Shown here: in pieces, positions 12,120 through 59,375 of the stretch
How the letters are laid out: each line of letters starts with the position of its first letter
How positions within the stretch are numbered: the stretch's first letter is position 1
NCBI GenBank assembly: GCA_037441385.1
Contig: JBBISH010000014.1
Span: forward strand, 410-64,409
From: Myxococcales bacterium
GTDB lineage: Bacteria > Myxococcota_A > UBA9042
DNA length: 64,000 bases
Direction of reading: 5' to 3'
Program-made: the position numbers and the translations under genes
The notes under the pieces: model-generated
The model's database searches: none
Told to the model about the DNA's origin: nothing
What the model saw: only the letters and a program-made list of their open reading frames with translations

Positions 12120-12144
12120 CATGACACAAGCGTGCCTTTTGTCC
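12120..12144 (+). promoter_or_regulatory. Instance 1 of 23-bp motif CATGACACAAGcGTGCcttt-TGTCc (with upstream partial duplicate CATGACACAGG at 12109-12119)
   Basis: It sits in an AT-rich patch ~55-75 nt upstream of the lipoprotein gene start. It matches the consensus TGACA-N13-TGTC. Confidence 0.5.
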
Positions 12145-38825: not shown

Positions 38826-38849
38826 GGCCTTCGCGACACAAGGCACCCT

Positions 38850-44755: not shown

Positions 44756-44772
44756 GAAGCACCCTTGTGTCA
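44751..44772 (-). promoter_or_regulatory. Instance 3 of the 23-bp motif (minus strand): TGACACAAGGGTGCTTCATGTC, overlapping both divergent start codons
   Basis: This is the reverse complement of gacatgaagcacccttgtgtca. The CATG at 44753-44756 supplies an ATG on each strand. Confidence 0.5.
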
Positions 44773-44966
44773 TCTTACTGATCTTAATGGCGATTGTGGC
44801 AACCAGCTGCGTTACCGTGCAGCCGTGGCAGCGGGGCACGCTGAGCGAGCCGGCGATGGAATTGAAGCCGCGGCTGGGTAGCGAATTCCACAACCACGTG
44901 CGGCAGGTGCGCGAAGCGGCCATCGGCGGCGAGGGCGGCGCGGGCGGCGGCTGCGGCTGCAACTGA
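44754..44966 (+). CDS. DUF4266-family small lipoprotein (71 aa, C-terminal GGCGCN)
   Basis: The sequence is MKHPCVILLILMAIVATSC...VQPWQRGTLSEPAMELKP...GGEGGAGGGCGCN. The 5' codons are AT-rich. It is convergent on the DUF3570 gene. Confidence 0.6.
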   Translation: MKHPCVILLILMAIVATSCVTVQPWQRGTLSEPAMELKPRLGSEFHNHVRQVREAAIGGEGGAGGGCGCN

Positions 44967-44998
44967 TCGACGCGCGGCGGCATCCGGCTCCTGAGGGT

Positions 44999-46108
44999 CT
45001 AAAGATCAACGGACAAGGCAGCTTGGAGGATGCCGGTCCAGGTGTCGGCCATGGGCACAAAGGCGCCGTTGACCAGCGTGCGGAAGTCGTCGTAGCGTTC
45101 CCAGCCCGCCATGGCCTGCAGCACCGCCTCCCAGTTTTGCCAGCGAGTGCGCAAGGTTAGCTGAGTGCTGTCGGCAATCTGACCAACCAGGCGGCGGTCG
45201 CGCGTCATGTACTCGCGCTCTACGGAATACATCGCCCGCTCGAAGCTGGCCCGCGACTGCCAGTAGAAGCGATTGCTCAGCTCGACTTCGACCGCATAGT
45301 GGAACTTGAAGGTGGCGCCCAGCTCGGCCGTGTTGGCGCGGACGCCCCAGGTGTCGACGTAGCCGCGGTAGAAAGCGCGCAAGAACCAACGGTTGCTCAA
45401 GGCCTGGCGGCCCTCGATCGTGACGCCGTGGCGGGTGCGCTGATCGGGATGCTGCTCGGCGACCCACTGCGCGTGGTCTTTGGTCCACAGGTCGACCGTC
45501 TTGGGCACGAGGGGCACCATCCGATAGGGACTGGACTGAAAGCCGTTGATTTGCTGCAGAGTATACGCCAGCGACAGGACCGCAGTGCGGCTGATCAGCT
45601 GGGTGAGGGTGGCGTCGAGCCGGTGACTGGTGCGGTCGTGCCACAGCGCTTCGGGCTCGCGGACGCTGCCCAGCCGGTCCAGGCCCACACCATAGGTCAA
45701 TGATGTAGCCAGGTTGCGCGACAGCCACTCGCGAGTGGCGCCCAGGCTGACGGTGTGACTGCGGGTGTCGTTTTCGGTGCTGTAGGTATAGCCCGCGTGG
45801 CCTGCGAGCCCTTGCTCGTCGTAGACGGCCTGCAACCCCGCTTCTTTGCGGACGTCGTGAAAGCGCGCGCTGGCCCCCGAGATCATGTCCACCGAAGCGG
45901 CCGAAATGAAATCCGTTTTCAGATCGGCTTGGAGCGAGGCGCCGCTCTTGACGCGCTGCCGGGCTTGGACCCACGGCGAGATCACCTGCAGGCCATCGTT
46001 GTTGCGATACACGGCCGTGCCGGTCGCTGCGTGCGCCCCCAGTTCGTCGGCCCGGACCGGCGCCGCCAGGCCAAACAGCGCGCACAGCACGGCCCAATGC
46101 CACGCCAC
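44999..46108 (-). CDS. DUF3570-like predicted outer-membrane beta-barrel protein (GTG start)
   Basis: The signal is (M)AWHWAVLCALFGLAAPVRA. The sequence has alternating Y/W/F beta-strand periodicity. The other minus frame is Arg/Pro junk. Confidence 0.55.
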   Translation of the reverse strand: MAWHWAVLCALFGLAAPVRADELGAHAATGTAVYRNNDGLQVISPWVQARQRVKSGASLQADLKTDFISAASVDMISGASARFHDVRKEAGLQAVYDEQGLAGHAGYTYSTENDTRSHTVSLGATREWLSRNLATSLTYGVGLDRLGSVREPEALWHDRTSHRLDATLTQLISRTAVLSLAYTLQQINGFQSSPYRMVPLVPKTVDLWTKDHAQWVAEQHPDQRTRHGVTIEGRQALSNRWFLRAFYRGYVDTWGVRANTAELGATFKFHYAVEVELSNRFYWQSRASFERAMYSVEREYMTRDRRLVGQIADSTQLTLRTRWQNWEAVLQAMAGWERYDDFRTLVNGAFVPMADTWTGILQAALSVDL

Positions 46109-46140
46109 GCTGGCCCAATGGAGCCCCAGGCGCGGCGCGA

Positions 46141-46670
46141 TCACGGCAGCACCCAGTCGACCCAGTCGGCGAGGAGCTTGTAGTCGGGGTCGTCGCGGCT
46201 GGCGAAGATCTCGAAGCCGCTGCCGTGACGGATGCCACCTTGGTCCAGGGGCAGGCACTTGAGCAAGAGTTTGCAGTTATTCAACGAGGTTACGCCGCGC
46301 AAGCGGTTGCGGATGGCGTCGTAGTTCCACGTGAGCTCGGCCTCGGTCAGGCGCGTCTCGTCCAACGGCGTCTCCGCAAACTCGGGAGGCGCGCGAAGGA
46401 AATCCACGGCGTACAGCTTGAGGCTGCGATGCGGGTCGCCGTGGCAGGCCGACGAAGCACAGCGCCGCCCCAAGACCGGTTGCACGAAGGTGACAAACTG
46501 GCCGTAGTTGGGTTTGGGCGGTACGTAGCGCGGATTGTCTATGGACTCGCACCCGGCGACGGCGAGCAAAACAACACTGATTACAAGAACTTTGGCCAAA
46601 GTGCGCCGCAGGAGCCGCCATGGTCTGGTCCGCCGCGGGGGGCTTGAAAGGGGTTGCAGGTGGCCATTCA
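46141..46670 (-). CDS. PSCyt1-like lipoprotein with degenerate haem motif (CX4CH)
   Basis: The signal is MNGHL...VLLAVAGC. The pattern FVQPVLGRRCASSACHGDP...LLLKCL...DDPDYKLLADW parallels the 44126-44755 protein. Confidence 0.5.
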
Positions 46671-46838
46671 TCTCGGCACGACGCGGCTCTCTTGCGGTTG
46701 CGCGCCCCCCATGCCGTCTGGACACCGACCAGGGCCGCGGGAGGTGGCGATTTGGCGTTTGCGCGACCCCTGCGGGCGGTGGTATCAAGCAAGTGGAGAT
46801 CGGAAGAGCACGCACACCGCCTGATTCGATGCTATGCA

Positions 46839-49139
46839 ATGCAGCCGAGCCGCGCAATCAACCGTGTCTGTTCCGTCGCATGGCTGCTGTTGGCGGCCGT
46901 GTGCGGTAGCGGGTGCGCCGAGCCCGAGGCGACGATCGCCGCCCCCAAGGTAGAGAGCTGCAGCGCGGCGGCCTGCCACGCCGATGTGGAGCAAATCCAC
47001 TACGGTGGCCAGATGTTGCGCTGCGTCGATTGCCACGGCGGCAACCCCGAGGCGCCGACCAAGGCGGGGGCGCACGTGACGGTGGACTACTCGTTCAACC
47101 CGACCACGCCGGGCAAGCACTTCTTGGACGACCCGCCGCTGGTGGACCTTGCCGCGGTCCCGACCGCAGTGATGCAGTTCTTGAATCCGGCCGATTACCG
47201 CGTAATTCGCAATACTTGCGGAAGCTCGACCTTGGCCGGCGGCAACTGTCACAGCATCATCACCAGCAACAGCTTGCTGCTGAATCGGGCGACGTTGGCG
47301 GGCCAGCTTGCCGGGGGTGGCTTCATCGCTGGCGTCCAGGGCAAGGCGGCCCACTACGGGGTGGTGCCAACCCGCGACACGCTGACACCCACCAAACTGC
47401 CGCCGCTCACTGCGGCTGACTTCCCGGCGCTTCCCGCGGACGTGCCGGCGAGCGTGACGCCGACGACGGCCCAGGCGTTCTATCCTGTTTACGAGCAGTT
47501 GTGCACCGAGTGCCACCTCAGCCGCGAGGGCGCCAAGATGCCGGGGCGCTACTACTCAGCGGGGTGCAACGGCTGTCACATGACCACCGCGGACGATGGC
47601 CGCACCGTGAGCAGCGATCCCACGCAAAATCGCGAGGAGATCGGTCACCCCATGCGGCACCGGTTCACGAATCTGGTGCCGGACCGGCAATGCGCGCACT
47701 GCCATATTTCGCACCTGGGTCGGGCGCTGTTGGCCCAAGGTGTCCGCGAGCGGAGCGAACCAGACGGCGACAAGCTGGCCGGCGGCCCCAACCGTGGCGC
47801 GGCGGACCCGCCCAACGCGGTGCCGTGGGCCAAAGAAAACTACATAAAATACAAGGGGATGTATTGGCAGTACGGCAAACCGTACCCGTATTTCATCGCG
47901 GACGAGAACGGCACCAACGACACGGACGAGACGCCGCCCGACATCCACACCGCCAAGGGCCTGGCCTGCATCGACTGCCACAACATCGTGGAGGAGCACG
48001 GCACGGGCAAGATGGCCTACCGGATGGACCAAGAGCTGGACGTGCGCTGCCAGAGCTGCCACGGGCGGCCGGGCGAAAAGGCGAAGCTGATGTCGGATTC
48101 GGCTGTCACGTTTGACAAGGCGGGGACCGCGGCGGGCGGCTTTGGCGGAAACCCGCTGATGATTCATACGCTTGCCGATGGAACTGTGTACGAAACGGGC
48201 AAGATCGACGGCAAAGACCACCCCGTGACGCAGATCAACGCGCGCATCGATCCGGCTGGCAAGATCTACAACCCACGGACACGAATGGGTTGTCAGCTGC
48301 ACGCCGGCTCGGCGGAGGCGCGGGCAGCGGTGCGCAAGGCGGTGAACGACCTTTCGGCCAAGGACCCCGCGGCGGTGGCAAAGGAGTTCCCAGGGCTACC
48401 GGAGGGATTCAAGTTCAAGGAGTTGGGCGGTGAAGAGGACGGCCGGGTTGAGTGCTTTACCTGCCACAACAGCTGGACCTTGAACTGCTACGGCTGCCAC
48501 ATGGTCCGCGACGACCGCAAGAGCTACGTCAGCCGCATCGACGGCAAGAAGAAGCTAGGCGCGGTCGAGAGCTTTGGCCTCTCCGTCCTGCCCGACGCGC
48601 TGGCGATGGGCTTCAACGCGCGGGGGCGCATCTCGCCGCTGGTGGGGACGTCGATCTTCTTTACGCACATCGACAAGGGCGGCAACAAGGTCATCGACGC
48701 CCAGGCGCTGACGACCGGCGAGGGGCTGACCGGCGAGGGCAACGTCCACAACCCCGTGCACCACCACACGATTCAAAAGCTGCCGCGCGACTGCACCGGC
48801 TGTCACCCGGCCGCGACGGGCGACACGAGCCCGCAAAGTGCCAACGCCAAGGCGGTGTTGCGCGCCGTCGGCCTGGGCACAGGCGAGGCAACCTTTGTCG
48901 ACGGCAACGGCAAGACCCACTGGCTGGACCGGCTGCTTTGGGCCGACTACGACGGCGACGGCAAATGGGACGACCCCAAGACGCTGGGGCTGCCGCAGGC
49001 GCTGGCCGCGGTCGAGCGGGCGGTGGGCACGACGCACCTGCAGCTGCCCTCGTTCGTCGGCCTGCCCGACCCGGGGCCGCTGGACCTGGCGACGGTGCGG
49101 CGGGTCATCGACAACCGCGTGGTCAATCAGCGACCATAG
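46839..49139 (+). CDS. Multihaem c-type cytochrome lipoprotein (9 canonical CXXCH plus 2 non-canonical)
   Basis: The signal is MQPSRAINRVCSVAWLLLAAVCGSGC. The canonical motifs are CVDCH, CTECH, CNGCH, CAHCH, CIDCH, CQSCH, CFTCH, CYGCH and CTGCH. The two non-canonical sites are CSAAACH and C-X9-CH. Confidence 0.8.
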   Translation: MQPSRAINRVCSVAWLLLAAVCGSGCAEPEATIAAPKVESCSAAACHADVEQIHYGGQMLRCVDCHGGNPEAPTKAGAHVTVDYSFNPTTPGKHFLDDPPLVDLAAVPTAVMQFLNPADYRVIRNTCGSSTLAGGNCHSIITSNSLLLNRATLAGQLAGGGFIAGVQGKAAHYGVVPTRDTLTPTKLPPLTAADFPALPADVPASVTPTTAQAFYPVYEQLCTECHLSREGAKMPGRYYSAGCNGCHMTTADDGRTVSSDPTQNREEIGHPMRHRFTNLVPDRQCAHCHISHLGRALLAQGVRERSEPDGDKLAGGPNRGAADPPNAVPWAKENYIKYKGMYWQYGKPYPYFIADENGTNDTDETPPDIHTAKGLACIDCHNIVEEHGTGKMAYRMDQELDVRCQSCHGRPGEKAKLMSDSAVTFDKAGTAAGGFGGNPLMIHTLADGTVYETGKIDGKDHPVTQINARIDPAGKIYNPRTRMGCQLHAGSAEARAAVRKAVNDLSAKDPAAVAKEFPGLPEGFKFKELGGEEDGRVECFTCHNSWTLNCYGCHMVRDDRKSYVSRIDGKKKLGAVESFGLSVLPDALAMGFNARGRISPLVGTSIFFTHIDKGGNKVIDAQALTTGEGLTGEGNVHNPVHHHTIQKLPRDCTGCHPAATGDTSPQSANAKAVLRAVGLGTGEATFVDGNGKTHWLDRLLWADYDGDGKWDDPKTLGLPQALAAVERAVGTTHLQLPSFVGLPDPGPLDLATVRRVIDNRVVNQRP

Positions 49140-49164
49140 GACGATATGCTCATGTATTTCATAC

Positions 49165-49190
49165 ACATGACACAAGGGTGCATTGTTGCG
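49165..49190 (+). promoter_or_regulatory. Instance 4 of the 23-bp motif: CATGACACAAGGGTGCATTGtTGcG, whose ATG is the predicted lipoprotein start
   Basis: Direct reading. The right arm is weak. The patch (49141-49185) is AT-rich. Confidence 0.4.
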
Positions 49191-50006
49191 GTTGGCCTTG
49201 CGGCAACGTTGCTCGCGGGGTGTGAGTCCGAAACGGCGACCCCGAGCGCGACGCCAGCGGTCGAGACCATGGCGGAGTTCACTGGGGCGCCCACGGCGGT
49301 GGTCGGCGGAGCGTGGGCGTGTGCGGGCAAGGCGCAAGGGACCGTCACCGGCGGGGCCGTGGAACTGAACGGCTACGTGCGGTTGCTGAGCGACCCGGAG
49401 GCCAAACAGCCCGTGCCGGCGGCCAAGATCGAGGCATTCAGCGCAGCTGGCGTGTCGCTGTCGGAGCCGAGCTATGCGGACCCGAGCAAGGCCGGCCGCG
49501 TGGCGCTGTCGGTGCCCGTCAAGTCCACGGGCTTTGATGGGTACGCCGTCATTTCGCAAGCCGGATTCTTGGATTTTCGCCTGCAGTCAAGCCGCAAGGT
49601 GGTGTCGACCGATCTGGCCGGCTGGGCGTGGCTGGCGACGCAGGCGGAAGTGGACAGCCGGGCCCAGGCCATAGGGATTCCGCTTGAGGCGGGCAAAGGG
49701 ATTCTGGTCGGTTCGGTCCACGACTGCGACGGTTTTGGCGCGGCCAACGCGGTAGTCGAGGTGGGCGGCTCGCTGAGCACGACGGTGCTGTACGCCGAGG
49801 GGTTTGACTTGGTCGCCAAGCGTGTCTTTACGGCGGATTCCGGGCGCTTTGCGGTGGCGAACCTGCCGGCGGGTCCGGTGACCATCAAGGCGTTCGGCCG
49901 CGCCAAGGCGGGTGGGAAGCTGCAACTGCTCTCCAAAATCGAAACGACCATCGTCGCCGGCAAGATGACGGCCGTGGACCTGGCCCCGCGCGCGGCCGGG
50001 CAGTAG
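49167..50006 (+). CDS. Hypothetical lipoprotein with carboxypeptidase-regulatory-like beta-sandwich C-terminal domain
   Basis: The signal is MTQGCIVAVGLAATLLAGC; an alternative start at 49146 is possible. The C-terminal sequence SGRFAVANLPAGPVTIKAF is CarbopepD_reg-like. Confidence 0.5.
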   Translation: MTQGCIVAVGLAATLLAGCESETATPSATPAVETMAEFTGAPTAVVGGAWACAGKAQGTVTGGAVELNGYVRLLSDPEAKQPVPAAKIEAFSAAGVSLSEPSYADPSKAGRVALSVPVKSTGFDGYAVISQAGFLDFRLQSSRKVVSTDLAGWAWLATQAEVDSRAQAIGIPLEAGKGILVGSVHDCDGFGAANAVVEVGGSLSTTVLYAEGFDLVAKRVFTADSGRFAVANLPAGPVTIKAFGRAKAGGKLQLLSKIETTIVAGKMTAVDLAPRAAGQ

Positions 50007-50016
50007 TCAACGCACT

Positions 50017-51273
50017 GTGCCTGTGATTCTGCTGGGTATGCTGATGCTCGCGGCCGTGGCGGCGGCGGCACTGCGTCCGGCGGCCTGGTCGGGGACGCTG
50101 ACGCTGGGCGCGACGATGCTGGCGCTCGCGCCGCTGTGGCTGGGGGCGGCGGCGTGGCTGTGGCGGCGGCCGGGGCGCATCGCGCTGCGGTGGGTTCTCC
50201 TATTTTCCTTGCTCTTTCGCCTGGGTGCGGCGCTGGAGCCGCCGGCGCTGTCGTCCGACGCCTACCGCTACCTGTGGGACGGCCGGGTCCAGCGAAGCGG
50301 GCTGAGTCCCTACGCTTTTGCCCCAGGCGACCCGCACCTGCAGCATTTGCGCGACGACCTGGTATTTACGCGCGTAAATCGGCCCGCGGCGCGGACCATC
50401 TACCCGCCGGGAGCCCAGCTGCTCTTTGTGGCGCTGCCGTACGACATGGCGGCGGTGCGTTTCTTGTTCATCGCGCTGGACTTGCTGACGGTCTGGCTGG
50501 TCGCGCGGATGCTTTCTCGCATTGGCCAGGACCCGGCGCGGGCGCTGCTGTATGGCTGGAGTCCGCTCGCCATCTGCGAGGTGGGCAACGCGAGCCACCT
50601 GGACGCGGCGATGCTGCCCCTGCTCGTGGCCGGTGCGTGGGCGCTGATTGCCGGACGGACGCGGCTCGCGGGCTGGCTCTGGGGCGGCGCGGCGAGCCTC
50701 AAGCTGTATCCGGTGCTTGTCGCGTTTTCGCCAATTCGTAAGCATCGAAGCGCGGTTGGCACAAGGGTGCTACTTGTCGGGGCGGGGCTGTACGGGGTCT
50801 ATGGGCTGGTCAGCGGCACGCGGGTGCTCGGGTTCTTGCCGGACTACGTGCGGGCCGCAGAGGACCACAACATCGGGCTGCGGGCGGTGTTCGAAGGTCT
50901 GGCCGCGCCCCTGGGGCCGGCGGCGGCGCGCATCGCGGGGTTTGGGGCGTGCGGGGTGGCGATGGCGGCGGGGGTGTGGCTCGTGCTGCGGCAAAGCGAA
51001 GACCCGCTGCGACGACTGCGCGACCTGATAGCCGTCTACTTGCTGACGGTGCCTACCGCGCTCCACCCGTGGTACGCCCTGTGGCTCTTGCCGTTTCTGT
51101 GCGCGGGCCCAACGGCGCCGGGGCTGTGGCTGCTGGCGACGCTGCCGCTGTCGTACCTGAAATACTCGGCGCCAGGTGGCGTTCTGCCGCCGTGGGTGCC
51201 CGTGGTCGAGTTCCTGCCCGCTACGGTCCTGCAAGTGCGGCTGCTCTTGCGCACGCCGCAGGTGGCAGCATGA
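50017..51273 (+). CDS. Polytopic membrane glycosyltransferase-like protein (DUF2029/GT87-like)
   Basis: It has about 11 TM segments and the conserved SSDAYRYLWDG motif. A copy of the 23-bp motif sits internally at 50757-50779. Confidence 0.55.
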   Translation: MPVILLGMLMLAAVAAAALRPAAWSGTLTLGATMLALAPLWLGAAAWLWRRPGRIALRWVLLFSLLFRLGAALEPPALSSDAYRYLWDGRVQRSGLSPYAFAPGDPHLQHLRDDLVFTRVNRPAARTIYPPGAQLLFVALPYDMAAVRFLFIALDLLTVWLVARMLSRIGQDPARALLYGWSPLAICEVGNASHLDAAMLPLLVAGAWALIAGRTRLAGWLWGGAASLKLYPVLVAFSPIRKHRSAVGTRVLLVGAGLYGVYGLVSGTRVLGFLPDYVRAAEDHNIGLRAVFEGLAAPLGPAAARIAGFGACGVAMAAGVWLVLRQSEDPLRRLRDLIAVYLLTVPTALHPWYALWLLPFLCAGPTAPGLWLLATLPLSYLKYSAPGGVLPPWVPVVEFLPATVLQVRLLLRTPQVAA

Positions 51274-52706
51274 GCCCGGCCCGGTTGGCCCTGGTGCCGT
51301 ACCTGCTGCTGCTGGCGTGGATGCTTTTGTACAGCGCCCACGCGGTCGTGCTCGTGATCTTGCACCGGCGCACGCCGCCGCCGGCCAAACCGCCGCAGTG
51401 GCCGGGCGAACTGCCGCTCGTTGCCGTGCAACTTCCTGTCTACAACGAAGAACTTGTCGTAGAGCGGCTGATCGCAGCGGTGGGCCGGCTGGACTGGCCG
51501 CGCGACCGGTTGCTTGTGCAAGTTCTGGATGACTCTACGGATCGCACGACACAGCTCGCCGAGAGAGCCCTCGCGCACCTGGCGGAAGCCGGCCTCCAGA
51601 CCCAGTTGCTGCGGCGCGGCGAGCGGTCGGGCTTCAAGGCCGGCGCGCTGGCCCACGGCATGGCGCACACTCCTGCGGAATTCTTCGCCATCTTTGACGC
51701 CGATTTCGTACCCCCGCCCGAATTCCTGCGCCGCGCGCTGCCGCACCTGGTCCCGGCCGACGTGGCCGCGGTGCAGGGCCGCTGGACGCACCTGAACCGC
51801 GACGCCTCGGCGCTGACCCGCGCTCAAGCCGTGGCGATTGACGGACATTTCGCGATGGAGCAAGAGGCGCGCTTCCGGGCTGGCTGGCTGCTCAACTTCA
51901 ACGGCAGCGCCGGAGTGTGGCGGCGCGCGGCGATCGCGGCGGCCGGAGGTTGGCGGGGCGACACGCTGACCGAGGACCTGGACCTGTCCTACCGCGCCCA
52001 GTTGGCCGGCTGGCGCCTGGTGTACGACCGCGACCTGGTTTGTCCGGCGGAACTCCCAAGTACTTTGGCGGACTTCAAGGCTCAGCAGCGCCGCTGGGCC
52101 ACGGGCTCCATCCAGGTGGCGCGGTCGCTCTTGCCGGCCATCTGGCAGAGTCCGCGCTCGCTTGCGACCAAGCTAGCCGCGACCCTGCACCTGACCCACT
52201 ACGCCGTGCACCCACTGGTGGCGCTGACGGCTCTGATGTCGGTACCTTGCGTGCTGTTGCCGGGTCTGCAGCATCCGCAGGGCGCGCTGTGGCAGGTGAT
52301 GGCGCCCTTCGCCCTGGCGATGGTGGGGCCAACGCTCTTGTATACTTACGCGCGCATGGAGCTTGGACTGCCGCTGCGGCCGCTGCTGGCCGACCTGGGC
52401 CCGCTGACGCTTTTGGGGATCGGGGTCGCGATCTCGAACGGCAAGGCGGTGCTGCAAGGGCTGCGGCCGGTCGTGCGCGAGTTCGAGCGGACCCGAAAGC
52501 TGGGCCAGGATGCGGGGTTGCCGGGCGTGTATGCCCAGCCCCGCGACCGGCTGCAGCCGTGGGAGTGGGCCCTGGCGGCCTATTGCCTGACTGCCGCCGC
52601 CGGGCTGGTTTGGAGCGGCGTCTACGCGGTCGCACCCTTTTTAGCCTTGGACGCCGCGGGGTTCGCGTATGTGGCCTGGGGCGGTCGGCCGGAGCGCAGG
52701 CCATGA
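51270..52706 (+). CDS. Family 2 glycosyltransferase (cellulose-synthase-like, processive type)
   Basis: It is ATGA-coupled to the upstream gene. The motifs are DDSTD, FDADF and the Q(Q/R)xRW motif QQRRWATG. TM segments lie at the N- and C-termini. Confidence 0.75.
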   Translation: MSPARLALVPYLLLLAWMLLYSAHAVVLVILHRRTPPPAKPPQWPGELPLVAVQLPVYNEELVVERLIAAVGRLDWPRDRLLVQVLDDSTDRTTQLAERALAHLAEAGLQTQLLRRGERSGFKAGALAHGMAHTPAEFFAIFDADFVPPPEFLRRALPHLVPADVAAVQGRWTHLNRDASALTRAQAVAIDGHFAMEQEARFRAGWLLNFNGSAGVWRRAAIAAAGGWRGDTLTEDLDLSYRAQLAGWRLVYDRDLVCPAELPSTLADFKAQQRRWATGSIQVARSLLPAIWQSPRSLATKLAATLHLTHYAVHPLVALTALMSVPCVLLPGLQHPQGALWQVMAPFALAMVGPTLLYTYARMELGLPLRPLLADLGPLTLLGIGVAISNGKAVLQGLRPVVREFERTRKLGQDAGLPGVYAQPRDRLQPWEWALAAYCLTAAAGLVWSGVYAVAPFLALDAAGFAYVAWGGRPERRP

Positions 52707-53413
52707 GGGTCGCGGTCATCATCCCGGCCTGGAACGAGGCAGCGAGCATCGCGGCCGTGGTCCGAGCGGTCCCGGTCGAACTGGGCGCCGTGGTGATCGT
52801 AGTGGATGGGGGAAGTCGCGACAGCACCGTCGAAATCGCGCGCGCGGTGGGGGCGGAGGTCGTGGTGGAGCGGCGCCCGGGCTACGGTCGCGCCTGTTTG
52901 ACCGGAGTGGACAAGGCCGAAGCACTGGGTGCGGAGGTCGTGGCCTTCTGCGATGGCTCCGACGCCGCCAACCCAGCGGACTTGTTGCCGATCGTCCAGC
53001 CTGTTTTGGCCGGTACCGCGGACTTCGTGGTCGGGTCGCGGACGCTGGGGCTGGCGGAACCGGGCGCCCTGCGGCCCCTGCAGCGCGCGGGGAATTGGGC
53101 GGCCACCTGGCTGATTGTCCGGCGTTTTGGCGTGCGGTATACGGACCTGGGCTCGATGCGGGCGCTGCGGCTGGCGGACCTGCGCCGGCTGGACCTGCAG
53201 GAAATGGCCCACGGCTGGCCGACAGAGATGCAGGTCCTTGCTGCCCAACATCATTTGCGAATCCTTGAAGTTCCCATGCACTATCGGCGACGCCGCGCCG
53301 GGGCGTCGAAGGTCTCTGGGCATCCCCTGGGCGCACTCCGGGCCGGTTTGGCGATCTTGCGCGTGGCGAGCGGTATGGGTCGTCAGCAAGGTCGCCGGGG
53401 GCCGACTGGATAG
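52703..53413 (+). CDS. Family 2 glycosyltransferase (polyprenyl-phosphate sugar synthase/DPM1-like)
   Basis: It is ATGA-coupled. The motifs are VIIPAWNEAASI and DGGSRDST...CDGSD. Confidence 0.75.
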   Translation: MRVAVIIPAWNEAASIAAVVRAVPVELGAVVIVVDGGSRDSTVEIARAVGAEVVVERRPGYGRACLTGVDKAEALGAEVVAFCDGSDAANPADLLPIVQPVLAGTADFVVGSRTLGLAEPGALRPLQRAGNWAATWLIVRRFGVRYTDLGSMRALRLADLRRLDLQEMAHGWPTEMQVLAAQHHLRILEVPMHYRRRRAGASKVSGHPLGALRAGLAILRVASGMGRQQGRRGPTG

Positions 53414-53494
53414 GTTGGCGGGTTGTCCATCGCGCGGCCAAAGTCGATCATGCTCGGGTTGGCAGGGGCAAAGCGTAGGTGGCAAGGGGTGGCG

Positions 53495-55138
53495 ATGCAG
53501 ACGAGTTCCCCGGTGGCGGTCGCGGTCATCAGCAAGCTGCCGCGGCTTGGACGCAGCAAGACCCGGTTGGCGCGGACGGTGGGCGCCGAGGCTGCGCTCG
53601 CGCTGCACCGCGCGTTTCTGGCGGACGAGTTGGAGCAACTGCACCGGCCCAGCGAGTGGGACCTGTACCTGATTCACGACCCTGCGGTGGACTTGGCCGA
53701 AGCGGGCGACCTGGCCAGCCTGCTCGGCGGCCACGCCCAAGGGCTGGTGCCCGGCCAGACGGGTCTGAGTCAAGAGTTGTTGCGGAGTTTTGAGCTGTTG
53801 CTCGGGTCGCACGGCAAGGTGGTGATCGTGAGCGGCGACGTGCCGCAACTCGATGCAGACTTGGTGGCGCAGGCGGTGGGCGCGCTGGACGCGGCGGACG
53901 TGGTCTTGGGCCCCGGACCGGACGGCGGCTACTACCTGGTGGGCCTGACGCGGCCGCACGACATCTTCACGACGATTCCGATGGGGACGGCGGCGGTGGA
54001 GCGCGCGACCGTGGCGCAGGCCCAGCGTTTGGGGCTCCGAGTGGCGCACGTCGCGGTGCTGACCGACGTGGACGAGGCGCAAGACCTGCTCGCCCTGGAG
54101 CGCGCTCCCCACGGCGTGGCGGCGCGGACGCGGTCTGTGATCGAGCAACTGGAGCGCGACGAGGTCGCCGCGCAGCTGCCCAGCGAGTTGCAGGTCGAGG
54201 TGACGAGTCGGTGCAATCTGCGGTGCTCGGCGTGCCTGATCAGCTACCAAGACCTGGACGAGGCTGCGGATCTGAGCTTGGACCAGTGGCAGCGCATCGT
54301 GAGCGACCTGCCGCGGCTGCAGCGGGTGGCGTTCCAGCTCAACGGCGAGCCCCTGGTCAATCCCCATGTTTTCGGGATGATCGCTGACGCCCGGCGGCGC
54401 GGGGCCCACACCGTCATGAACAGCAACGGCACGCTGCTGGACCGGCAGCGGAGCGAGCAGGTGGTGGCGAGCGGCCTGCACGAACTGCGGATCTCGCTGG
54501 ACGGCGCGCGGGCCGAGACTGTGGCCAAGATGGCGTGCGCGGACATCCTGGCCAAGGTCGAGCGGGGCGTGGCCGAGGCGGTGCGGGCACGCGGTTCGGG
54601 TCCGGGGCCGCGGCTGAGCCTATGGATGGTCGCGACGCGCTTGAACATTCACGAGCTGCCCCAACTGGTGCAGCTGGCGGCAGACTGGGGCATCGACGAG
54701 GTGTACGCGCAGCGGCTGGTCTTGACGGGGCACGGGACGGCGCGGCGAGAATACTCTGTCCACGGGCGGGATTCCGCGCTGCTCCACGACGCGGTGGCGA
54801 AGGCCGAGGCGGTGGCGGCGCAGACGGGGGTCGCGCTGCGGGCCTCTGGGCGTGTGCCGGTGCTACAGAGCTTTGCCGCGTCGAGCGACCCGCATCCGCA
54901 GCGCGCCTGCTACCGGCCGTGGCGGAGTGCGGTGGTCACGGCGACGATGCGGGTACTTCCCTGCTGCATCGGTAGTTTCACGGCGAACTACGACGACCTG
55001 GAGCTGGGCAACCTGGCGACGCAGACGTGGCACGAAATCTACAATGGCGAGCGGTATCGCGCCCTGCGGCGTGGTATCCTCCAGCGTGGACCGCTGCGAC
55101 CCGAGTGCCGCGATTGCGGTCACCTCTGGAGCCTGTGA
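53495..55138 (+). CDS. Fusion protein: DUF2064 (TIGR04282-like nucleotidyltransferase-fold) N-domain + radical SAM (CX3CX2C) domain with SPASM-like Cys-rich C-terminus
   Basis: The DUF2064 hallmark is AVISKLPRLGRSKTRLA. The radical SAM cluster is VEVTSRCNLRCSACL. The C-terminal sequence CYRPW...LPCCIG is SPASM-like. An upstream alternative start lies at 53423. Confidence 0.65.
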   Translation: MQTSSPVAVAVISKLPRLGRSKTRLARTVGAEAALALHRAFLADELEQLHRPSEWDLYLIHDPAVDLAEAGDLASLLGGHAQGLVPGQTGLSQELLRSFELLLGSHGKVVIVSGDVPQLDADLVAQAVGALDAADVVLGPGPDGGYYLVGLTRPHDIFTTIPMGTAAVERATVAQAQRLGLRVAHVAVLTDVDEAQDLLALERAPHGVAARTRSVIEQLERDEVAAQLPSELQVEVTSRCNLRCSACLISYQDLDEAADLSLDQWQRIVSDLPRLQRVAFQLNGEPLVNPHVFGMIADARRRGAHTVMNSNGTLLDRQRSEQVVASGLHELRISLDGARAETVAKMACADILAKVERGVAEAVRARGSGPGPRLSLWMVATRLNIHELPQLVQLAADWGIDEVYAQRLVLTGHGTARREYSVHGRDSALLHDAVAKAEAVAAQTGVALRASGRVPVLQSFAASSDPHPQRACYRPWRSAVVTATMRVLPCCIGSFTANYDDLELGNLATQTWHEIYNGERYRALRRGILQRGPLRPECRDCGHLWSL

Positions 55139-55881
55139 TGAGGAACCTCCTGTTTCTGCACGGCATACTCATCATGATGGCGAGCGCGTGCGTGGGGAAC
55201 GGCGAGCTGGAAGCCCAGCTGACCGGCCAGGTGGTGGGCGACGACGACCGACCGCTGGGGCCCGGACTGGTGATGGTCGAGCGGGGCAAGGTCCACGCTG
55301 GCGCTTACGAGGGCGGCGCGCTGATTGCGCCAAACGGCAAGTTCTCGGTGCCGCTTCCCGGCGGCGGTACGTGGGGCGTGCACCTCTTCAACGACAACTA
55401 CTCGTACCTGCCCGTTGAGGTGACGATCGACCCGCATCAGCAGGTCGCGCTGACGAACATGATGGTGAACTGGGGCGTCTGGATGGACCTGACCGGGCAG
55501 CCGAGTTGGCCCGACCAGCCCGATGACGCGCGCCTGATTCGCCTGCCGACCGACGACAACAAGGCCGACAACCCCGTCATCCAGAACATCCAGATGAAGT
55601 ACTTGCCCGGCGACCTGTTCCAGATCTCGGCCGATGTCAGCGACCCGACCCACGACCTGTCGCGGATGATCCTCGCCTTCGACGAGGCGACCGGCGCCGG
55701 CTACGCGATGAACCCGCCGGGTCCGCCCGACGCCAAGGGCTACTACCCGGAAGGCACCTACACTCTCAAGGTCTTCCTCAGCGACAAGCACGTCCGCGGC
55801 AAGTCGATGTGGCACTTCGTCGTCTCGGACGCGATGTGCAACAACACCCCGATTCAGCACTTGCCCATGCCGGCCAACTAG
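55138..55881 (+). CDS. Hypothetical lipoprotein
   Basis: It is TGATG-coupled. The signal is MRNLLFLHGILIMMASAC. Confidence 0.5.
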   Translation: MRNLLFLHGILIMMASACVGNGELEAQLTGQVVGDDDRPLGPGLVMVERGKVHAGAYEGGALIAPNGKFSVPLPGGGTWGVHLFNDNYSYLPVEVTIDPHQQVALTNMMVNWGVWMDLTGQPSWPDQPDDARLIRLPTDDNKADNPVIQNIQMKYLPGDLFQISADVSDPTHDLSRMILAFDEATGAGYAMNPPGPPDAKGYYPEGTYTLKVFLSDKHVRGKSMWHFVVSDAMCNNTPIQHLPMPAN

Positions 55882-56118
55882 CCCGACCACACCACATGGC
55901 CAGCCACAGATGGCAGACCAGGGACGGCGGCAGATGGGCTGGCGCGGGCAAGGCGACGATCAGGGGCGCCAGGCGCGTGCGATCAGGCCTCCGACGGATG
56001 GGACGACAGTTTGCCACCGACCAGGCTTGGTGCGGTTTCCGGAGCATGCCCCGATTGGCGGCGGGGTTCCCGGAAGTGGAGGCACGTGACCCGGCGCGCG
56101 GTCGCCGCTTGATACGAA

Positions 56119-56177
56119 CCCCGGTTCGGGCCCGAAGAATTGCCCGAGTTTTCGATCCGATTCGGACGGAACTGGTA
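56119..56177 (-). repeat. Dispersed ~55-bp element, copy 2 (reverse orientation; same orientation relative to its downstream gene as copy 1), followed by a 16-codon uORF (56177-56227) and then the 56246 gene
   Basis: The reverse complement aligns to 16719-16775 at ~90% identity and includes TTCGGGCCCGAA. Confidence 0.6.
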
Positions 56178-56245
56178 TGAGTGGTGAAAACTCAGAGGCT
56201 CTGCTAGCCTGGACTCGCCCCGGCTAGGCGCCCCGAGAACACCCC

Positions 56246-57052
56246 ATGTCAGCCCATCCGCCTGGAATTCCTCCGCTTCTCTCGGCAATCGCAGCCGCGA
56301 CAGGCGCCGCGCCGCACCCACAGCGCACGTGCACGGCCCCCTTCGGCGCATTGCCCAAAGTGTCCGAGGCGACCAAGGCGGCACTCGCAAAGGCTGCCCT
56401 GTCCGCCAATGACCGATATTTGTATGAGTTTATTGAGGAATACTCCTTCTGCCCCTTTGCCCGAGCCGGCCGAGAGGCCGGGCAGACGGTCCGATTCGTG
56501 CACTACGCCGAGTCCCTGGACCTTGAGCCCCTGCTGGCTATCATGGAGAACGTGGCGCGCGACAAGCAGATTGTCGTCGCACAGCTCATCCTCCCGCTCG
56601 TAGAGGCGACGCCAGAGCAGTGGCAACAGTTCTGCGACGACCTGACGGCCGTCGGACACGCCCGCCTCGGTGGACCGCCTGTGCTGGCCTTCGCGGCGCT
56701 TCATCCGCAACTCAGCTATACCACGGCAAATCCTTGGTCGATGATCCCCCTGTTCCGGCGGGCCCCAGACCCGACCCTGCAATGGGCGCGGCTGGAAAGC
56801 CTGGAGGAGCTCTACGCCGGCCGCGACACGCAGACCAGAGTTGTCGACCCCGCAGACGTGCTGGAGTATGTGCGCACGGCGCCCAAGCCAAGGCCGCCGC
56901 TCTACTACCGTGTGACGGAAACCAACGCCAAGATGGCGCAGTTCCTCGGCCTGGAGTCCATCGAGTCCCGGCTCGCGTCGATGGCCACCGAGGCGCAGTC
57001 CGCGTACCACCGTTTGCTCATGGCGGATGACACGGAGGTCGACCATGGCTAA
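56246..57052 (+). CDS. Conserved hypothetical protein (DUF1415-like; CPFA motif)
   Basis: The motif is YEFIEEYSFCPFARAG. Coding potential is good. Confidence 0.4.
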   Translation: MSAHPPGIPPLLSAIAAATGAAPHPQRTCTAPFGALPKVSEATKAALAKAALSANDRYLYEFIEEYSFCPFARAGREAGQTVRFVHYAESLDLEPLLAIMENVARDKQIVVAQLILPLVEATPEQWQQFCDDLTAVGHARLGGPPVLAFAALHPQLSYTTANPWSMIPLFRRAPDPTLQWARLESLEELYAGRDTQTRVVDPADVLEYVRTAPKPRPPLYYRVTETNAKMAQFLGLESIESRLASMATEAQSAYHRLLMADDTEVDHG

Positions 57053-57422
57053 CGGCGATTGGATTGTAGTCACGAACCTCGCACAACTACATGACGATGA
57101 ACCCATTTCGGCAACCGCCTTGGACATCGACCTGGTCGTCGTCCAGTCTGGCGGCCAGGTATACGCACTGTACGGCCGCTGCCCACACCGCGGCGGGCTC
57201 ATGTCCGCCGGTTGCATCGAGGGGGGCAGCCTAGTCTGTACCCTGCACGGCTGGGATTTCGACCTGGAGACCGGCGCCAGCGGCCGGGTCCCCGGCGAGA
57301 CGCTCACGCGGTTCGGCGCAAGGATTGACCAAACCACGGGCGACGTCCTCGTCAGCCGCGACGAGCTCGAGGCGTGGCGTGTGGACAACCCTCAGGCGTT
57401 CCTGCCTGGTGAATTCTTCTAG
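57045..57422 (+). CDS. Rieske [2Fe-2S] domain protein
   Basis: The Rieske CXH...CXXH box is CPHRGG...CTLHGW. It overlaps the upstream gene end by 8 nt. Confidence 0.7.
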   Translation: MANGDWIVVTNLAQLHDDEPISATALDIDLVVVQSGGQVYALYGRCPHRGGLMSAGCIEGGSLVCTLHGWDFDLETGASGRVPGETLTRFGARIDQTTGDVLVSRDELEAWRVDNPQAFLPGEFF

Positions 57423-57463
57423 CAATTTCAGCAGTATGCCACAAGGATGCCTTGCGGTTGGCG

Positions 57464-59173
57464 CTATTCGTAGGTGATGAGCCAGACGGCGCCCTCGATG
57501 TCGCCGCCACCATCCGCCGGTGGCGCCCCGTTGAACTCGCCCTGGTAGCCCAGCACTGCGGTCGTGCCAGGCGGGGCCGCGGCCGTGACATCGGCGACCC
57601 AGGGCTCGACCTGCATCCCTGGGCACCAGCCGCCGCGACCGAACCACCAAGTTCCTGCCTGGTTCGGCGTCATCCCGGTCGTCATGTTCGGCATGCACTG
57701 GTTGTTGGTGCCGGCCATCGGGTGGACCTTGGTGAACTTGGCAGTCCCCACAGTGAAGACGTGCTGGTGGTTGCAGAATTCGGCGCAGCTCGTCTTTGGA
57801 TCCTGGCCGTGACCCGTAATCAGCGCCCACAGCTCGACACGCTTCGCCGCGGGCGGAATCGCGACCTGCCGGCTGGGATGGGCCGCGCCGTAACCGCTCC
57901 CCCAGGCGCCACCCGACCAGAGATACTCGGCCAGCTTTGGGCGCAACGGCTTGCCGCGGTCCAGAAAACGTAGCTTGATCCAGGTCTTGGTCGGCTGCGG
58001 GTTCCAGCTGGGCGCGAAATCCCAGCGAAACACCCGCTTGCCACCACCCGCCAACAGCGGCGCCAGCGCAGACGCATCGACCCGCCAGTGCGTTTCGCGG
58101 TGGTAGCTCGTGATGAAACGCGCGAACTCAATGTTCTTCTGCTGCTTCTCGTCCCAAACGCCCAAGTGGGCCAAGTAGTCCCACGCGCCGCAGTTGCCCA
58201 GCTCGGGCGCCGCATCGTTCGGGCAGCGCTGCTCCACCTCGACCTGCAGCGTGTCGTACTTGGCCAGCTCCGCGGCGGTGCCCAGATCGACCTCGACCGT
58301 CGCGTACTCGGCCAGCGTTTCGCCCTTCCAAAGCTCAACGTCGTGCCCGACTTCGGCCTCGGCCTGCAGTTCGCGGTCGGCTTCCGCGTTCAGCGCTAGG
58401 GCCTCGTTCGCGGCATAGGCCAGGTTCCCCTCCCACGGCCACTTGCCGGCGGCCTGCAGGTTCGCCTTCTGCCGCGTCACGTCAGAGAGGTTCCCGAACC
58501 CGCGCACGCGCTGAAACCGGTCAATCACAAAGCCAATCTGACCATGACCAACGGCCGCTTTGCCAATCCATGAATCCAGATCCTGGCCGCGCGTCGCGAC
58601 GACGTGCAGGTGGGCCGCCCAGTGGACCTGGGCATCGCCCTCCAACTTGGCGAGCGCCCCAGCGACCCTGGCCTGCATCGCCTGGATGTGGTCCGTCGCC
58701 GCCGCGGCCGATCGCAGCGACAAGAAGAAATAGTGCACATTGTCAGGCGATTTCTTGACAAGGGCGTCCAGGTCCTTGGCGCTGTCCCAGAGCGACGCGG
58801 AATTCAACTCGGACACAGGGACCAAGTCGGTCACGAAGACATAGACTTCGCAACCCTGGAAGGACTCTTTGAAATTCCAGGTTGTCTCGTCTGCCAATGG
58901 CACCGCAAAGTCGGCGGCTCGCTCGTGCCGAAGGAATCCGTACGGGCCTGCCGCAAAGGGGAGCAACTTCAATCCCCGGTCGGCACAAAACGTGGAGGCC
59001 ACCGCGTCTGGCCCCAGGTCAGCAAACTCGTCGCCAGGCACAGCAACATCCGCCACGGCCACGGCGTCGACCGGCGCCGCGTCTTGCACATCCGCGGAGG
59101 TGGCCGAGACCGCCGCCCCACCGCCGCACCCGGCAAGCACGGCCGCGATCAACACCAGACAGCGGACCACCAT
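57464..59173 (-). CDS. Hypothetical secreted lipoprotein (~570 aa)
   Basis: The signal is MVVRCLVLIAAVLAGC, followed by a Pro/Ala/Asp-rich linker. Coding periodicity is good throughout. Confidence 0.55.
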   Translation of the reverse strand: MVVRCLVLIAAVLAGCGGGAAVSATSADVQDAAPVDAVAVADVAVPGDEFADLGPDAVASTFCADRGLKLLPFAAGPYGFLRHERAADFAVPLADETTWNFKESFQGCEVYVFVTDLVPVSELNSASLWDSAKDLDALVKKSPDNVHYFFLSLRSAAAATDHIQAMQARVAGALAKLEGDAQVHWAAHLHVVATRGQDLDSWIGKAAVGHGQIGFVIDRFQRVRGFGNLSDVTRQKANLQAAGKWPWEGNLAYAANEALALNAEADRELQAEAEVGHDVELWKGETLAEYATVEVDLGTAAELAKYDTLQVEVEQRCPNDAAPELGNCGAWDYLAHLGVWDEKQQKNIEFARFITSYHRETHWRVDASALAPLLAGGGKRVFRWDFAPSWNPQPTKTWIKLRFLDRGKPLRPKLAEYLWSGGAWGSGYGAAHPSRQVAIPPAAKRVELWALITGHGQDPKTSCAEFCNHQHVFTVGTAKFTKVHPMAGTNNQCMPNMTTGMTPNQAGTWWFGRGGWCPGMQVEPWVADVTAAAPPGTTAVLGYQGEFNGAPPADGGGDIEGAVWLITYE

Positions 59174-59375
59174 GCAGCACCTCGACTCGTGCGGACGGAG
59201 CCGCCGCCCCCGACGCCCGCTCCCGCCTGCCACCATAGCGGAAGCGGCGCCCCGCGCAAGCCATTCCAGGTGCGCGCTACCCTAGATTCCAGCGACGGGC
59301 TAGACTCGCGGCCTGCGCCTCAAGCCCCGACTTGCGGCCGCAACGCCAGCATTCTGCCGGTACCCCAAAGGCCCC

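Follow-up and report, generated by a model that had tools for sequence, protein, structure and literature searches.

A DUF2064–radical SAM fusion protein in a glycosyltransferase operon of a Myxococcales bacterium and its unfused relatives in other phyla

Among the described systems closest to the locus analysed here are the three-component glycosylation systems (GtrA/GtrB/Gtr*, ArnC/ArnEF/ArnT, PpgS/Rv3779 and polyprenyl-phosphoribose synthase/MATE/GT136), which combine a cytoplasmic glycosyltransferase of family GT2 with a polytopic glycosyltransferase of the GT-C type. The last of these systems is that of PMC11127046; in the pentofuranose systems published there, the donor sugar is diversified by auxiliary enzymes. 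Our subject is an operon at positions 50017-55881, entirely on the forward strand, of a 64-kb stretch of DNA from a Myxococcales bacterium (the window). The operon shares with these systems a cytoplasmic GT2 (g3), similar to polyprenyl-phosphate glycosyltransferases, and a polytopic GT-C (g1). Compared to them, however, the cassette to which it belongs adds a CofC-like nucleotidyltransferase and an enzyme of the radical S-adenosylmethionine (SAM) kind as obligate partners, a combination that we did not find described. To our knowledge, radical SAM enzymes are not a known component of polyprenyl-phosphate/GT-C ("three-component") glycosylation. We infer that the cassette represents a polyprenyl-phosphate/GT-C glycosylation system with an obligate radical SAM and nucleotidyltransferase module.

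Our reading of the locus, to which we give a probability of about 0.5, is that it is a lineage-specific fused form of a widespread extracytoplasmic glycosylation cassette that operates by a four-step route. The genes and domains of the operon are as follows.

50017-51273, + strand: g1, polytopic GT-C glycosyltransferase (GT87 / MptA_B family)
51270-52706, + strand: g2, BcsA-like processive GT2 with membrane segments at the N- and C-terminus
52703-53413, + strand: g3, small soluble GT2 of 236 residues, polyprenyl-phosphate glycosyltransferase-like (DPM1/AglJ/PpgS/ArnC-like)
53495-55138, + strand: g4, fusion of DUF2064 and a radical SAM/SPASM-like region, 547 residues
53495-54169, + strand: g4 N-terminal domain, DUF2064, with a CofC/FbiD-like nucleotidyltransferase fold
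54170-55138, + strand: g4 C-terminal domain, radical SAM core and SPASM/Twitch-like auxiliary-cluster domain
55138-55881, + strand: g5, lipoprotein with two beta-sandwich domains

A first-pass annotation, made from the letters of the sequence, had described five genes chained by ATGA/TGATG overlaps. The domains that it named (GT87, BcsA-like GT2, DPM1-like GT2, DUF2064 and Radical_SAM/SPASM) were all borne out by Pfam and NCBIfam. The overlaps hold at g1/g2 (ATGA), g2/g3 (ATGA) and g4/g5 (TGATG), but g3 and g4 are separated by a gap. The stop codon of g3 is TAG at 53411-53413, and g4 begins in the same frame between 9 nt (TTG at 53423) and 81 nt (ATG at 53495) later; the ATG at 53495 is preceded by AAGGGG. 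In the orthologous loci L001 and L003, unlike the window, the g3/g4 junction is a 4-nt overlap.

The fused protein and its two domains

The joining of DUF2064 and radical SAM domains in one polypeptide is real. An independent public gene call from a Logan assembly (P0001) equals g4 exactly, with its start at 53495, and the same architecture (about 530-592 residues) was found in 54 clusters at 50-89% identity, whose named sources are Myxococcota or "Deltaproteobacteria" metagenome-assembled genomes (MAGs). Furthermore, when 1.84 billion cluster representatives were searched exhaustively, more divergent DUF2064–radical SAM fusions (P0149, P0155 and P0156) emerged at 39-44% identity. An AlphaFold2 (AF2) model of g4 built from 70 sequences was confident over both domains, with a predicted local distance difference test (pLDDT) of 93.4 and a predicted template modelling score (pTM) of 0.84. 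The notion that two genes were joined without biological meaning, by a frameshift, misassembly or read-through, can appeal to the general error rate of metagenome assemblies and to nothing else; it is refuted by the identical Logan protein, the 54 or more clusters and the confident two-domain model, and we regard its chances as negligible.

The N-terminal domain is DUF2064, as first proposed. Residues 48-165 matched PF09837 at 69.8 bits (cutoff 25.8), and PDB entry 3cgx was matched at 3.5e-19. In Foldseek comparisons, this half of the protein resembled 3cgx (TM score 0.80), FbiD (0.73) and CofC-type proteins (0.76-0.77), and the profile of the cassette DUF2064 sequences matched FbiD at 6e-8 and 3-phosphoglycerate guanylyltransferase at 3e-7. 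Compared to the CofC/FbiD guanylyltransferases of F420 biosynthesis (6bwg, 7p97 and 2i5e), the domain has the same fold (TM score 0.72-0.77) and aligned motifs, the KTRL, D-x-P and D-x-D-x-x-x-D-L motifs being in register with 6bwg and 7p97 in the profile alignment. It differs in that the similarity is only remote (profile E-values of 6e-8 to 3e-4) and in that no F420 genes are present in its context. Residues D44, D115, P117, D143-G-G-Y146, D191 and D193 are invariant in fused and unfused members and K22-T-R-L25 is nearly so. Because of the homology to FbiD and CofC and the retention of the catalytic residues, the domain is best read as a nucleotidyltransferase and not as a glycosyltransferase.

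The C-terminal half matched Radical_SAM (PF04055) at 45.8 bits against a cutoff of 29.5 (residues 234-392) and SPASM (PF13186) at 45.2 bits (residues 472-541). The full CX3CX2C cluster expected of this half is present, since C240-x3-C244-x2-C247 was conserved in all 67 aligned radical SAM domains. Further toward the C-terminus, C472, C490, C491, C538 and C541 were likewise conserved in 67 of 67 sequences, and no other cysteines were conserved there. A full SPASM domain is defined by a C-terminal motif of seven to eight cysteines and two auxiliary [4Fe-4S] clusters, and with just five conserved C-terminal cysteines this assignment was rejected despite the match to PF13186. As five such cysteines suffice for one auxiliary cluster, the domain fits a Twitch-like enzyme with a single auxiliary cluster, and not ArsS. 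The spacing C-x17-CC-x46-C-x2-C resembles the four-cysteine auxiliary site of BtrN. The Foldseek neighbours of the domain included the sugar and nucleotide enzymes DesII, BlsE, BtrN, MoaA and viperin. Compared to these Twitch/SPASM enzymes, g4 has the same partial-TIM core and C-terminal cysteine-rich domain, but its identity to them is 13-18% and peptide-modifying SPASM enzymes score equally. No NCBIfam equivalog covers the domain.

DUF2064 proteins, GT2 partners and radical SAM enzymes had been cited in the first-pass annotation as known to co-occur, which refers to the "rSAM/selenodomain-associated" trio of TIGR04282, TIGR04283 and an ArsS-type enzyme. The NCBIfam name of TIGR04282 would make the locus one for arsenosugar (organoarsenical) biosynthesis. 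The resemblance is that genes for a GT2, for a radical SAM enzyme and for a member of the same DUF2064 family lie together; g4 scored 130.1 bits on TIGR04282, close to the cutoff of 134, and the unfused DUF2064 protein of a related locus (L008) scored 138.4. However, g4 itself lies under that cutoff, and g3 reached 41.2 bits on TIGR04283 against 182. In addition, the radical SAM domain is of the SPASM/Twitch type (PF13186) without the DUF3641/ArsS C-terminal domain, the small GT2 is DPM1/AglJ-like, and the operon has neither an ArsS-like gene nor one for ArsM (the rest of the window was not scanned for ArsS), nor any other arsenic gene. A GT-C at the core and a polyprenyl-phosphate-type GT2 have no place in the proposed arsenosugar route. 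By these scores and the absence of DUF3641, the trio is a different system, and the arsenosugar reading, very improbable, is effectively refuted for this locus.

The TIGR04282 name is likely to be a systematic misnomer for proteins of the cassette, which means that "arsenosugar biosynthesis glycosyltransferase" has been applied, or nearly so, to proteins of a different pathway. The unfused protein at L008 5927-6664, which passes the model (138.4 versus 134), would receive this very name from the NCBI pipeline, and its partners are not ArsS-type. In public annotation the labels do not go beyond "DUF2064 domain-containing protein" and "rSAM/selenodomain-associated transferase 1".

The unfused cassette and the proposed route

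Stand-alone homologues of the radical SAM half, at 35-44% identity, are encoded in tight operons. Loci L007, L008 and L009 begin with DUF2064 (246-255 residues), followed by GT87/MptA_B (444-464 residues), radical SAM/SPASM (350 residues) and small GT2 (235-253 residues), with overlaps of 1-4 nt between the genes. When GTDB was scanned with a single genome for each species, at least 574 loci with a relative of this radical SAM domain were confirmed. Partners were then located by tblastn in the best 80 of these loci, most of the loci being MAG contigs. DUF2064, GT87 and the small GT2 were all found beside the radical SAM gene in 46 of the 80, and at least one partner in 71; short contigs account for many of the remaining loci. 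The cassette is carried by Acetobacteraceae and other Alphaproteobacteria, by Acidobacteriota, Chloroflexota, Desulfobacterales, a Comamonadaceae MAG and Myxococcota. One Planctomycetota locus (L043) has a radical SAM homologue with an adjacent second radical SAM gene and none of the three partners.

The gene order varies between groups, which argues against simple inherited synteny. The GT87 and the small GT2 are core members of the cassette in other phyla, and the large GT2 is confined to the Myxococcota and Desulfobacterales forms, the latter of which also gain a DUF547 gene. In Chloroflexota the GT-C position is filled by DUF2079 (a "predicted membrane protein" in Pfam), a family of the GT-C clan. 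Both domains were found in one open reading frame (ORF) at only two of the 80 loci, L013 and L014, both from Myxococcota. The g4 gene is a fused version of a cassette that is widespread and unstudied. Found in at least 574 species-level genomes of six or more bacterial lineages, the cassette joins a glycosylation system of this type to a dedicated radical SAM enzyme and a CofC-like nucleotidyltransferase, which points to undescribed sugar-tailoring chemistry and to an equally undescribed envelope glycoconjugate or protein modification.

The fusion had been taken as a sign of direct functional coupling, and the wider survey upheld this: in many other phyla the genes for DUF2064, GT-C, radical SAM and small GT2 lie side by side and overlap, and an alternative fusion exists. 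In protein P0152 (561 residues), a small GT2 is fused to the same radical SAM domain; its GT2 part is 42% identical to full-length g3 (2e-47), and its locus, L094, also holds genes for DUF2079, DUF2064, a second radical SAM enzyme, a methyltransferase and a protein joining cytochrome c to CarboxypepD_reg. Since one lineage joins the radical SAM domain to DUF2064 and another joins it to a g3-type GT2, a Rosetta-stone argument suggests that the three cytoplasmic enzymes act together. The occurrence of P0152 in a locus with DUF2079 and DUF2064 likewise ties the radical SAM domain to cytoplasmic sugar-handling enzymes. These two independent fusions provide a testable hypothesis on which enzymes cooperate.

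The glycosyltransferases themselves were characterised by sequence comparison. The g1 protein has multiple hydrophobic segments, matched PF09594 (GT87) at 34.5 bits against a cutoff of 25 and carries the MptA_B_family label in precomputed annotation, by which it is assigned to the GT87 / GT-C family; a sequence search gave no solved homologue. The g3 protein lacks membrane helices and matched Glycos_transf_2 of Pfam at 3e-15. Its NCBIfam matches were to AglJ (119 bits against 325), PpgS (60 against 370) and a dolichyl-phosphate hexose transferase (58 bits), none of them at the equivalog cutoff, and in the PDB it matched DPMS (5mlz) and ArnC over residues 1-208. It appears most similar to polyprenyl-phosphate glycosyltransferases, and polyprenyl phosphate is a plausible predicted acceptor. 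The route to a lipid-linked glycan that the first-pass annotation had suggested is plausible, with a g3 like DPMS, ArnC, AglJ and PpgS and with a GT-C in g1. A PAP2 lipid-phosphate phosphatase encoded in the related operon L098 was also counted in favour of the glycosylation reading.

The g2 protein has hydrophobic segments at both termini and the motifs DD87, DAD143, TED234 and QQRRW272. It matched Glyco_trans_2_3 of Pfam at 1e-22, its best solved homologue in the PDB is BcsA (2.5e-22), and it is classed on these features as a BcsA-like processive GT2 synthase. Compared to the BcsA-type processive beta-glycan synthases, g2 shares the D, DxD, TED and QxxRW motifs and the membrane segments, but it has 478 residues without a PilZ domain, and BcsB and BcsC partners are absent. 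An assignment as CelA equivalog was rejected (108 bits against 699).

The cassette probably produces an unusual sugar that is coupled to a carrier lipid and then transferred to an extracytoplasmic target. The following route was chosen because it is the simplest that employs all four conserved parts. First, the DUF2064 domain of g4 would activate a phosphorylated sugar-like substrate as a nucleoside diphosphate (NDP) derivative. Second, the radical SAM domain, with its SAM cluster and a Twitch-type auxiliary [4Fe-4S] cluster, would tailor the unit by hydrogen-atom abstraction; oxidation, epimerisation, deoxygenation or carbon–carbon chemistry are possible outcomes. Third, the small DPM1-like GT2 (g3) would move the unit to polyprenyl phosphate. 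Fourth, after flipping, the GT87 (g1) would transfer the unit to a periplasmic acceptor. The gene order, the domain identities, the conservation of catalytic residues and of the cassette, and the alternative fusions are observations; we infer every chemical step, and likewise the order of the DUF2064 and radical SAM steps, the lipid carrier and the acceptor. The proposed route mirrors the published three-component systems, where the lipid-linked donor is diversified by auxiliary enzymes (PMC11127046).

Companion genes and competing explanations

The unit described in the first-pass annotation comprised the five genes from g1 to g5. These do belong together, but the true start of the unit lies further upstream, at the genes of a decahaem cytochrome and a lipoprotein.

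46839-49139, + strand: decahaem c-type cytochrome, ORF opening at 46620; first gene of the conserved operon
49146-50006, + strand: g0, lipoprotein whose beta-sandwich weakly resembles CarboxypepD_reg; another possible start is at 49167 (MTQGC...LLAGC)

The conserved order is a multihaem cytochrome, a lipoprotein of about 280 residues, GT87, large GT2, small GT2 and the fusion, often followed by a g5 homologue. It was found in L001, L003, L013, L096 and L098, at 42-84% identity to the window; in L098 the cytochrome gene is assigned by position and not by homology, and genes for the PAP2 phosphatase and a CN_hydrolase are inserted between the GT87 and large GT2 genes. Wherever the upstream sequence of an orthologous locus extends far enough, g1 is preceded by genes for the cytochrome and the CarboxypepD_reg-like lipoprotein. 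In L014 the order is kept from the lipoprotein gene onward, and the region upstream of it gave no cytochrome match.

The cytochrome has nine CxxCH motifs and one CxxxxCH motif, and its start is likely to be the methionine at 46839, which would give it a signal peptide. It matched Cytochrom_c3_2 of Pfam and an ExtM-like NCBIfam model (127 bits against a cutoff of 800), and homologues at 49-84% identity occupy the equivalent position in L001, L003, L013 and L096. The g0 protein, which matched PF13620 at 23 bits, under the cutoff, is kept between the cytochrome and GT87 genes in the same four loci and upstream of GT87 in L014. At the other end of the operon, g5 has a signal peptide ending in ...MMASAC, lipoprotein-like by eye, and gave no Pfam or NCBIfam match. 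The family was found only among relatives of the operon's lineage; of its 45 homologous clusters, one has a named source, which is Myxococcota. An AF2 model of g5 has two beta-sandwich domains (pLDDT 92.7) with weak Foldseek similarity to putative carbohydrate-binding lipoproteins of Bacteroides.

Here the cassette shares its operon with a BcsA-like polymer synthase, a decahaem cytochrome and a pair of beta-sandwich lipoproteins, and in this lineage of Myxococcota the acceptor is therefore probably the g2 polymer or a co-encoded exported protein. The repeated siting of the cassette near multihaem cytochromes and other periplasmic redox proteins makes a connection with how extracellular electron-transfer machinery is assembled conceivable.

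Several points weigh against the glycosylation route proposed above. First, the window operon holds no flippase gene (GtrA-, MATE- or EmrE-like). Second, the small GT2 is absent beside the fusion in L014 and L096, and a stand-alone radical SAM orthologue in L005 has neither glycosyltransferase nor DUF2064 neighbours. Third, CofC-type enzymes use phospho-acids rather than sugars. Fourth, two fused proteins, P0052 and P0054, carry the substitutions K22Q, R24A, D115Q, D191E and D193H while all eight Fe-S cysteines are kept; in this sub-clade the DUF2064 domain may be non-catalytic, in which case it is not always a catalytic part of the protein. Fifth, in our literature search no paper mentioned DUF2064 or linked radical SAM enzymes to DUF2079, DUF2029 or GT-C systems, and searches on radical SAM with polyprenyl phosphate and GT-C, on TIGR04282/3 and on PF09837 gave nothing describing the cassette. 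Finally, the Foldseek neighbours of the radical SAM domain also include the peptide enzymes SkfB, SuiB, CteB, anSME and PqqE, with similar E-values, and its best NCBIfam matches, TIGR04311 and TIGR04317, are of the "metalloenzyme maturase" kind, covering the core only at about one third of the cutoffs.

The sub-clade of P0052 and P0054 is represented by L098 10001-11635, in the operon with the PAP2 and CN_hydrolase insertion, and no separate DUF2064 gene lies nearby.

The last of these points bears on a second explanation, in which a radical SAM enzyme of the anSME or "metalloenzyme maturase" type modifies an exported redox protein or lipoprotein before export, and the GT2 and GT-C enzymes glycosylate the same client in the periplasm. 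The nearest NCBIfam models are indeed a putative metalloenzyme maturase (TIGR04311, 115 bits) and a tungsten-enzyme maturase (TIGR04317, 102-134 bits). Exported or membrane redox neighbours also recur, such as the decahaem cytochrome and CarboxypepD_reg lipoprotein in the window, L001, L003, L013 and L096, the cytochrome c–CarboxypepD_reg fusion and EB_dh protein in L094, MsrP/MsrQ-like proteins in 11-23 loci and DoxX in 27. However, the redox neighbour differs between phyla while the four-gene core is constant, and the partial, low-scoring matches to the two models are joined by the indication of a single auxiliary cluster, the lack of an RRE or peptide-binding domain and the fusion of the radical SAM domain to nucleotide- or sugar-handling domains instead of client-binding ones. 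We consider this explanation unlikely.

The operon of L094 (2784-11836), which also encodes an EB_dh haem-domain protein and a rhodanese, recalls the window's pairing of a cytochrome with a CarboxypepD_reg lipoprotein, though the lineage is unrelated.

Accessory genes flank the unfused cassette, for example at L007 5777-7840 and L008 4183-5271. A second radical SAM/SPASM protein of about 335 residues accompanies the cassette across phyla in about 16 loci (among them L003 13778-14797 on the - strand, L010 6231-7235, L083 5111-6112 and L094 2784-3782), its best model being the mycofactocin maturase MftC at 85-95 bits, far under the cutoff. DoxX/DoxD-like membrane proteins occur at 27 loci (e.g., L008 5325-5927), sometimes overlapping the DUF2064 start; such a protein could be the missing flippase or could be linked to a redox function. 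MsrP-like molybdenum oxidoreductases are paired with cytochrome b (MsrP/MsrQ-like) in 11-23 loci, and a 362-residue protein of the PNP_UDP_1 nucleoside-phosphorylase family is encoded in 13 loci. None of the second MftC-like radical SAM, DoxX, PNP_UDP_1 or MsrP/MsrQ-like proteins, nor the queried methyltransferases, had a tblastn match in the 64 kb of the window.

Genes of this kind, together with the nucleotidyltransferase half of g4, suggest another alternative, that the cassette makes a glycosylated small-molecule redox cofactor or lipid for the neighbouring cytochromes or oxidoreductases, after the logic of F420 or mycofactocin. Its parts would be a CofC-like activating enzyme, one or two radical SAM enzymes, a methyltransferase and the glycosyltransferases. 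Among structural neighbours of the DUF2064 domain with a characterised function, guanylyltransferases of the F420 pathway are the closest, the second radical SAM enzyme in about 16 loci and L094 leans to the mycofactocin maturase model, SAM methyltransferases adjoin the cassette in L003, L008 and L094, g2 matched MftF at 82 bits, and redox partners recur beside the cassette. Against this stand the absence from the window of matches to the accessory genes listed above and the lack of a precursor peptide or of further genes of a cofactor pathway. Furthermore, every match to an Mft or F420 model falls far under its cutoff, and the periplasmic transfer that a GT-C implies is unusual in cofactor synthesis. 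A cofactor product therefore seems to us quite unlikely.

A more specific chemistry, which we hold to be distinctly improbable, is that the Twitch radical SAM domain makes a glycosyl unit of a kind new to lipid-linked glycosylation, for example a SAM-derived 5'-deoxyadenosyl adduct that a PNP_UDP_1-family phosphorylase would convert to a 5-substituted ribose-1-phosphate. From this, DUF2064 would form an NDP-sugar for g3 to load onto polyprenyl phosphate, after which the GT-C would deliver the unit to periplasmic redox proteins such as the decahaem cytochrome. If true, this would be a new route of post-translational or cell-surface modification, and by analogy it would account for the pairing of DUF2064 with a GT2 in the arsenosugar system.

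Neighbouring genes and a repeated motif

Two conserved genes diverge from the operon on its upstream side.

44999-46144, - strand: DUF3570 protein (PF12094, 89 bits), divergent conserved neighbour
46141-46569, - strand: 142-residue protein, divergent conserved neighbour

The DUF3570 protein is a predicted outer-membrane protein. Loci L001, L003 and L013 have kept both genes beside the operon, and the two also adjoin the stand-alone radical SAM homologue in L005. They belong to a divergent set at 43005-46569 (- strand), encoding the 142-residue, DUF3570, 285-residue and 373-residue proteins, which co-varies with the Myxococcota operon (L001, L003, L005, L013 and L014). In L005 the 142-residue, DUF3570 and 373-residue genes lie near the stand-alone radical SAM gene, although glycosyltransferase and DUF2064 genes do not. 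Genes for DUF4266 and DUF7482 join the set in L003 and L005, and a DUF7482 homologue is also present in L014.

Directly 3' of the operon are genes for a DUF1415 protein (56246-57052, + strand) and a small Rieske [2Fe-2S] ferredoxin (57027-57422, + strand), neither of which is conserved in related loci. At 57464-59236 (- strand), 1.6 kb downstream of the operon, a secreted or lipoprotein-like protein of 590 residues has a Peptide-N-glycosidase F C-terminal domain (PF09113, 9e-22). This PNGase F-like gene was considered as a glycan partner and rejected, as it is not conserved in any related locus.

A repeated motif has one copy within the operon.

50756-50778, + strand: motif tGACACAAGGGTGCt..TGTC / TTGGCACAAGGGTGCTACTTGTC, inside g1

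The first-pass annotation had noted this 23-bp motif at 50757-50779 and suggested an internal promoter. The copy exists, one base from the position then given. Further copies are at 12124 (+), 38842 (-), 44758 (-), 49170 (+) and 59385 (-), making six in the window, and the 13-mer core had five matches against 0.96 expected. In L013, the copies at the g0 start and inside the GT87 gene (3751 and 5340) are the best-conserved blocks, while neighbouring wobble positions vary; in the more distant orthologous loci the motif is absent. We conclude that the motif is a real, conserved, lineage-specific element.

The idea of an internal promoter is without support, because no sigma-70 or sigma-54 consensus is present. 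A sigma-54 site was rejected at the motif, where the GG..GC spacing is one base short and the GG is not conserved, and a scan for TGGCAC-N5-TTGCW gave one unrelated near-match only, fewer than expected by chance. A sigma-70 and terminator scan of 46000-57500 gave no more than shuffled sequence would, and nothing at the motif. The motif matches no Rfam family, and an Rfam scan of the whole window found no family at gathering score. The element tGACACAAGGGTGC may be an operator or an RNA element.

The motif takes the form (A)TGACACAAGGGTGC(T)T..TGTC, and its copy at 38842 is a perfect palindrome, CACAAGG-GTG-CCTTGTG. One copy lies about 140 nt before the start of the PNGase F-like gene. Three copies are preceded by ATG, giving an MTQGC N-terminus.

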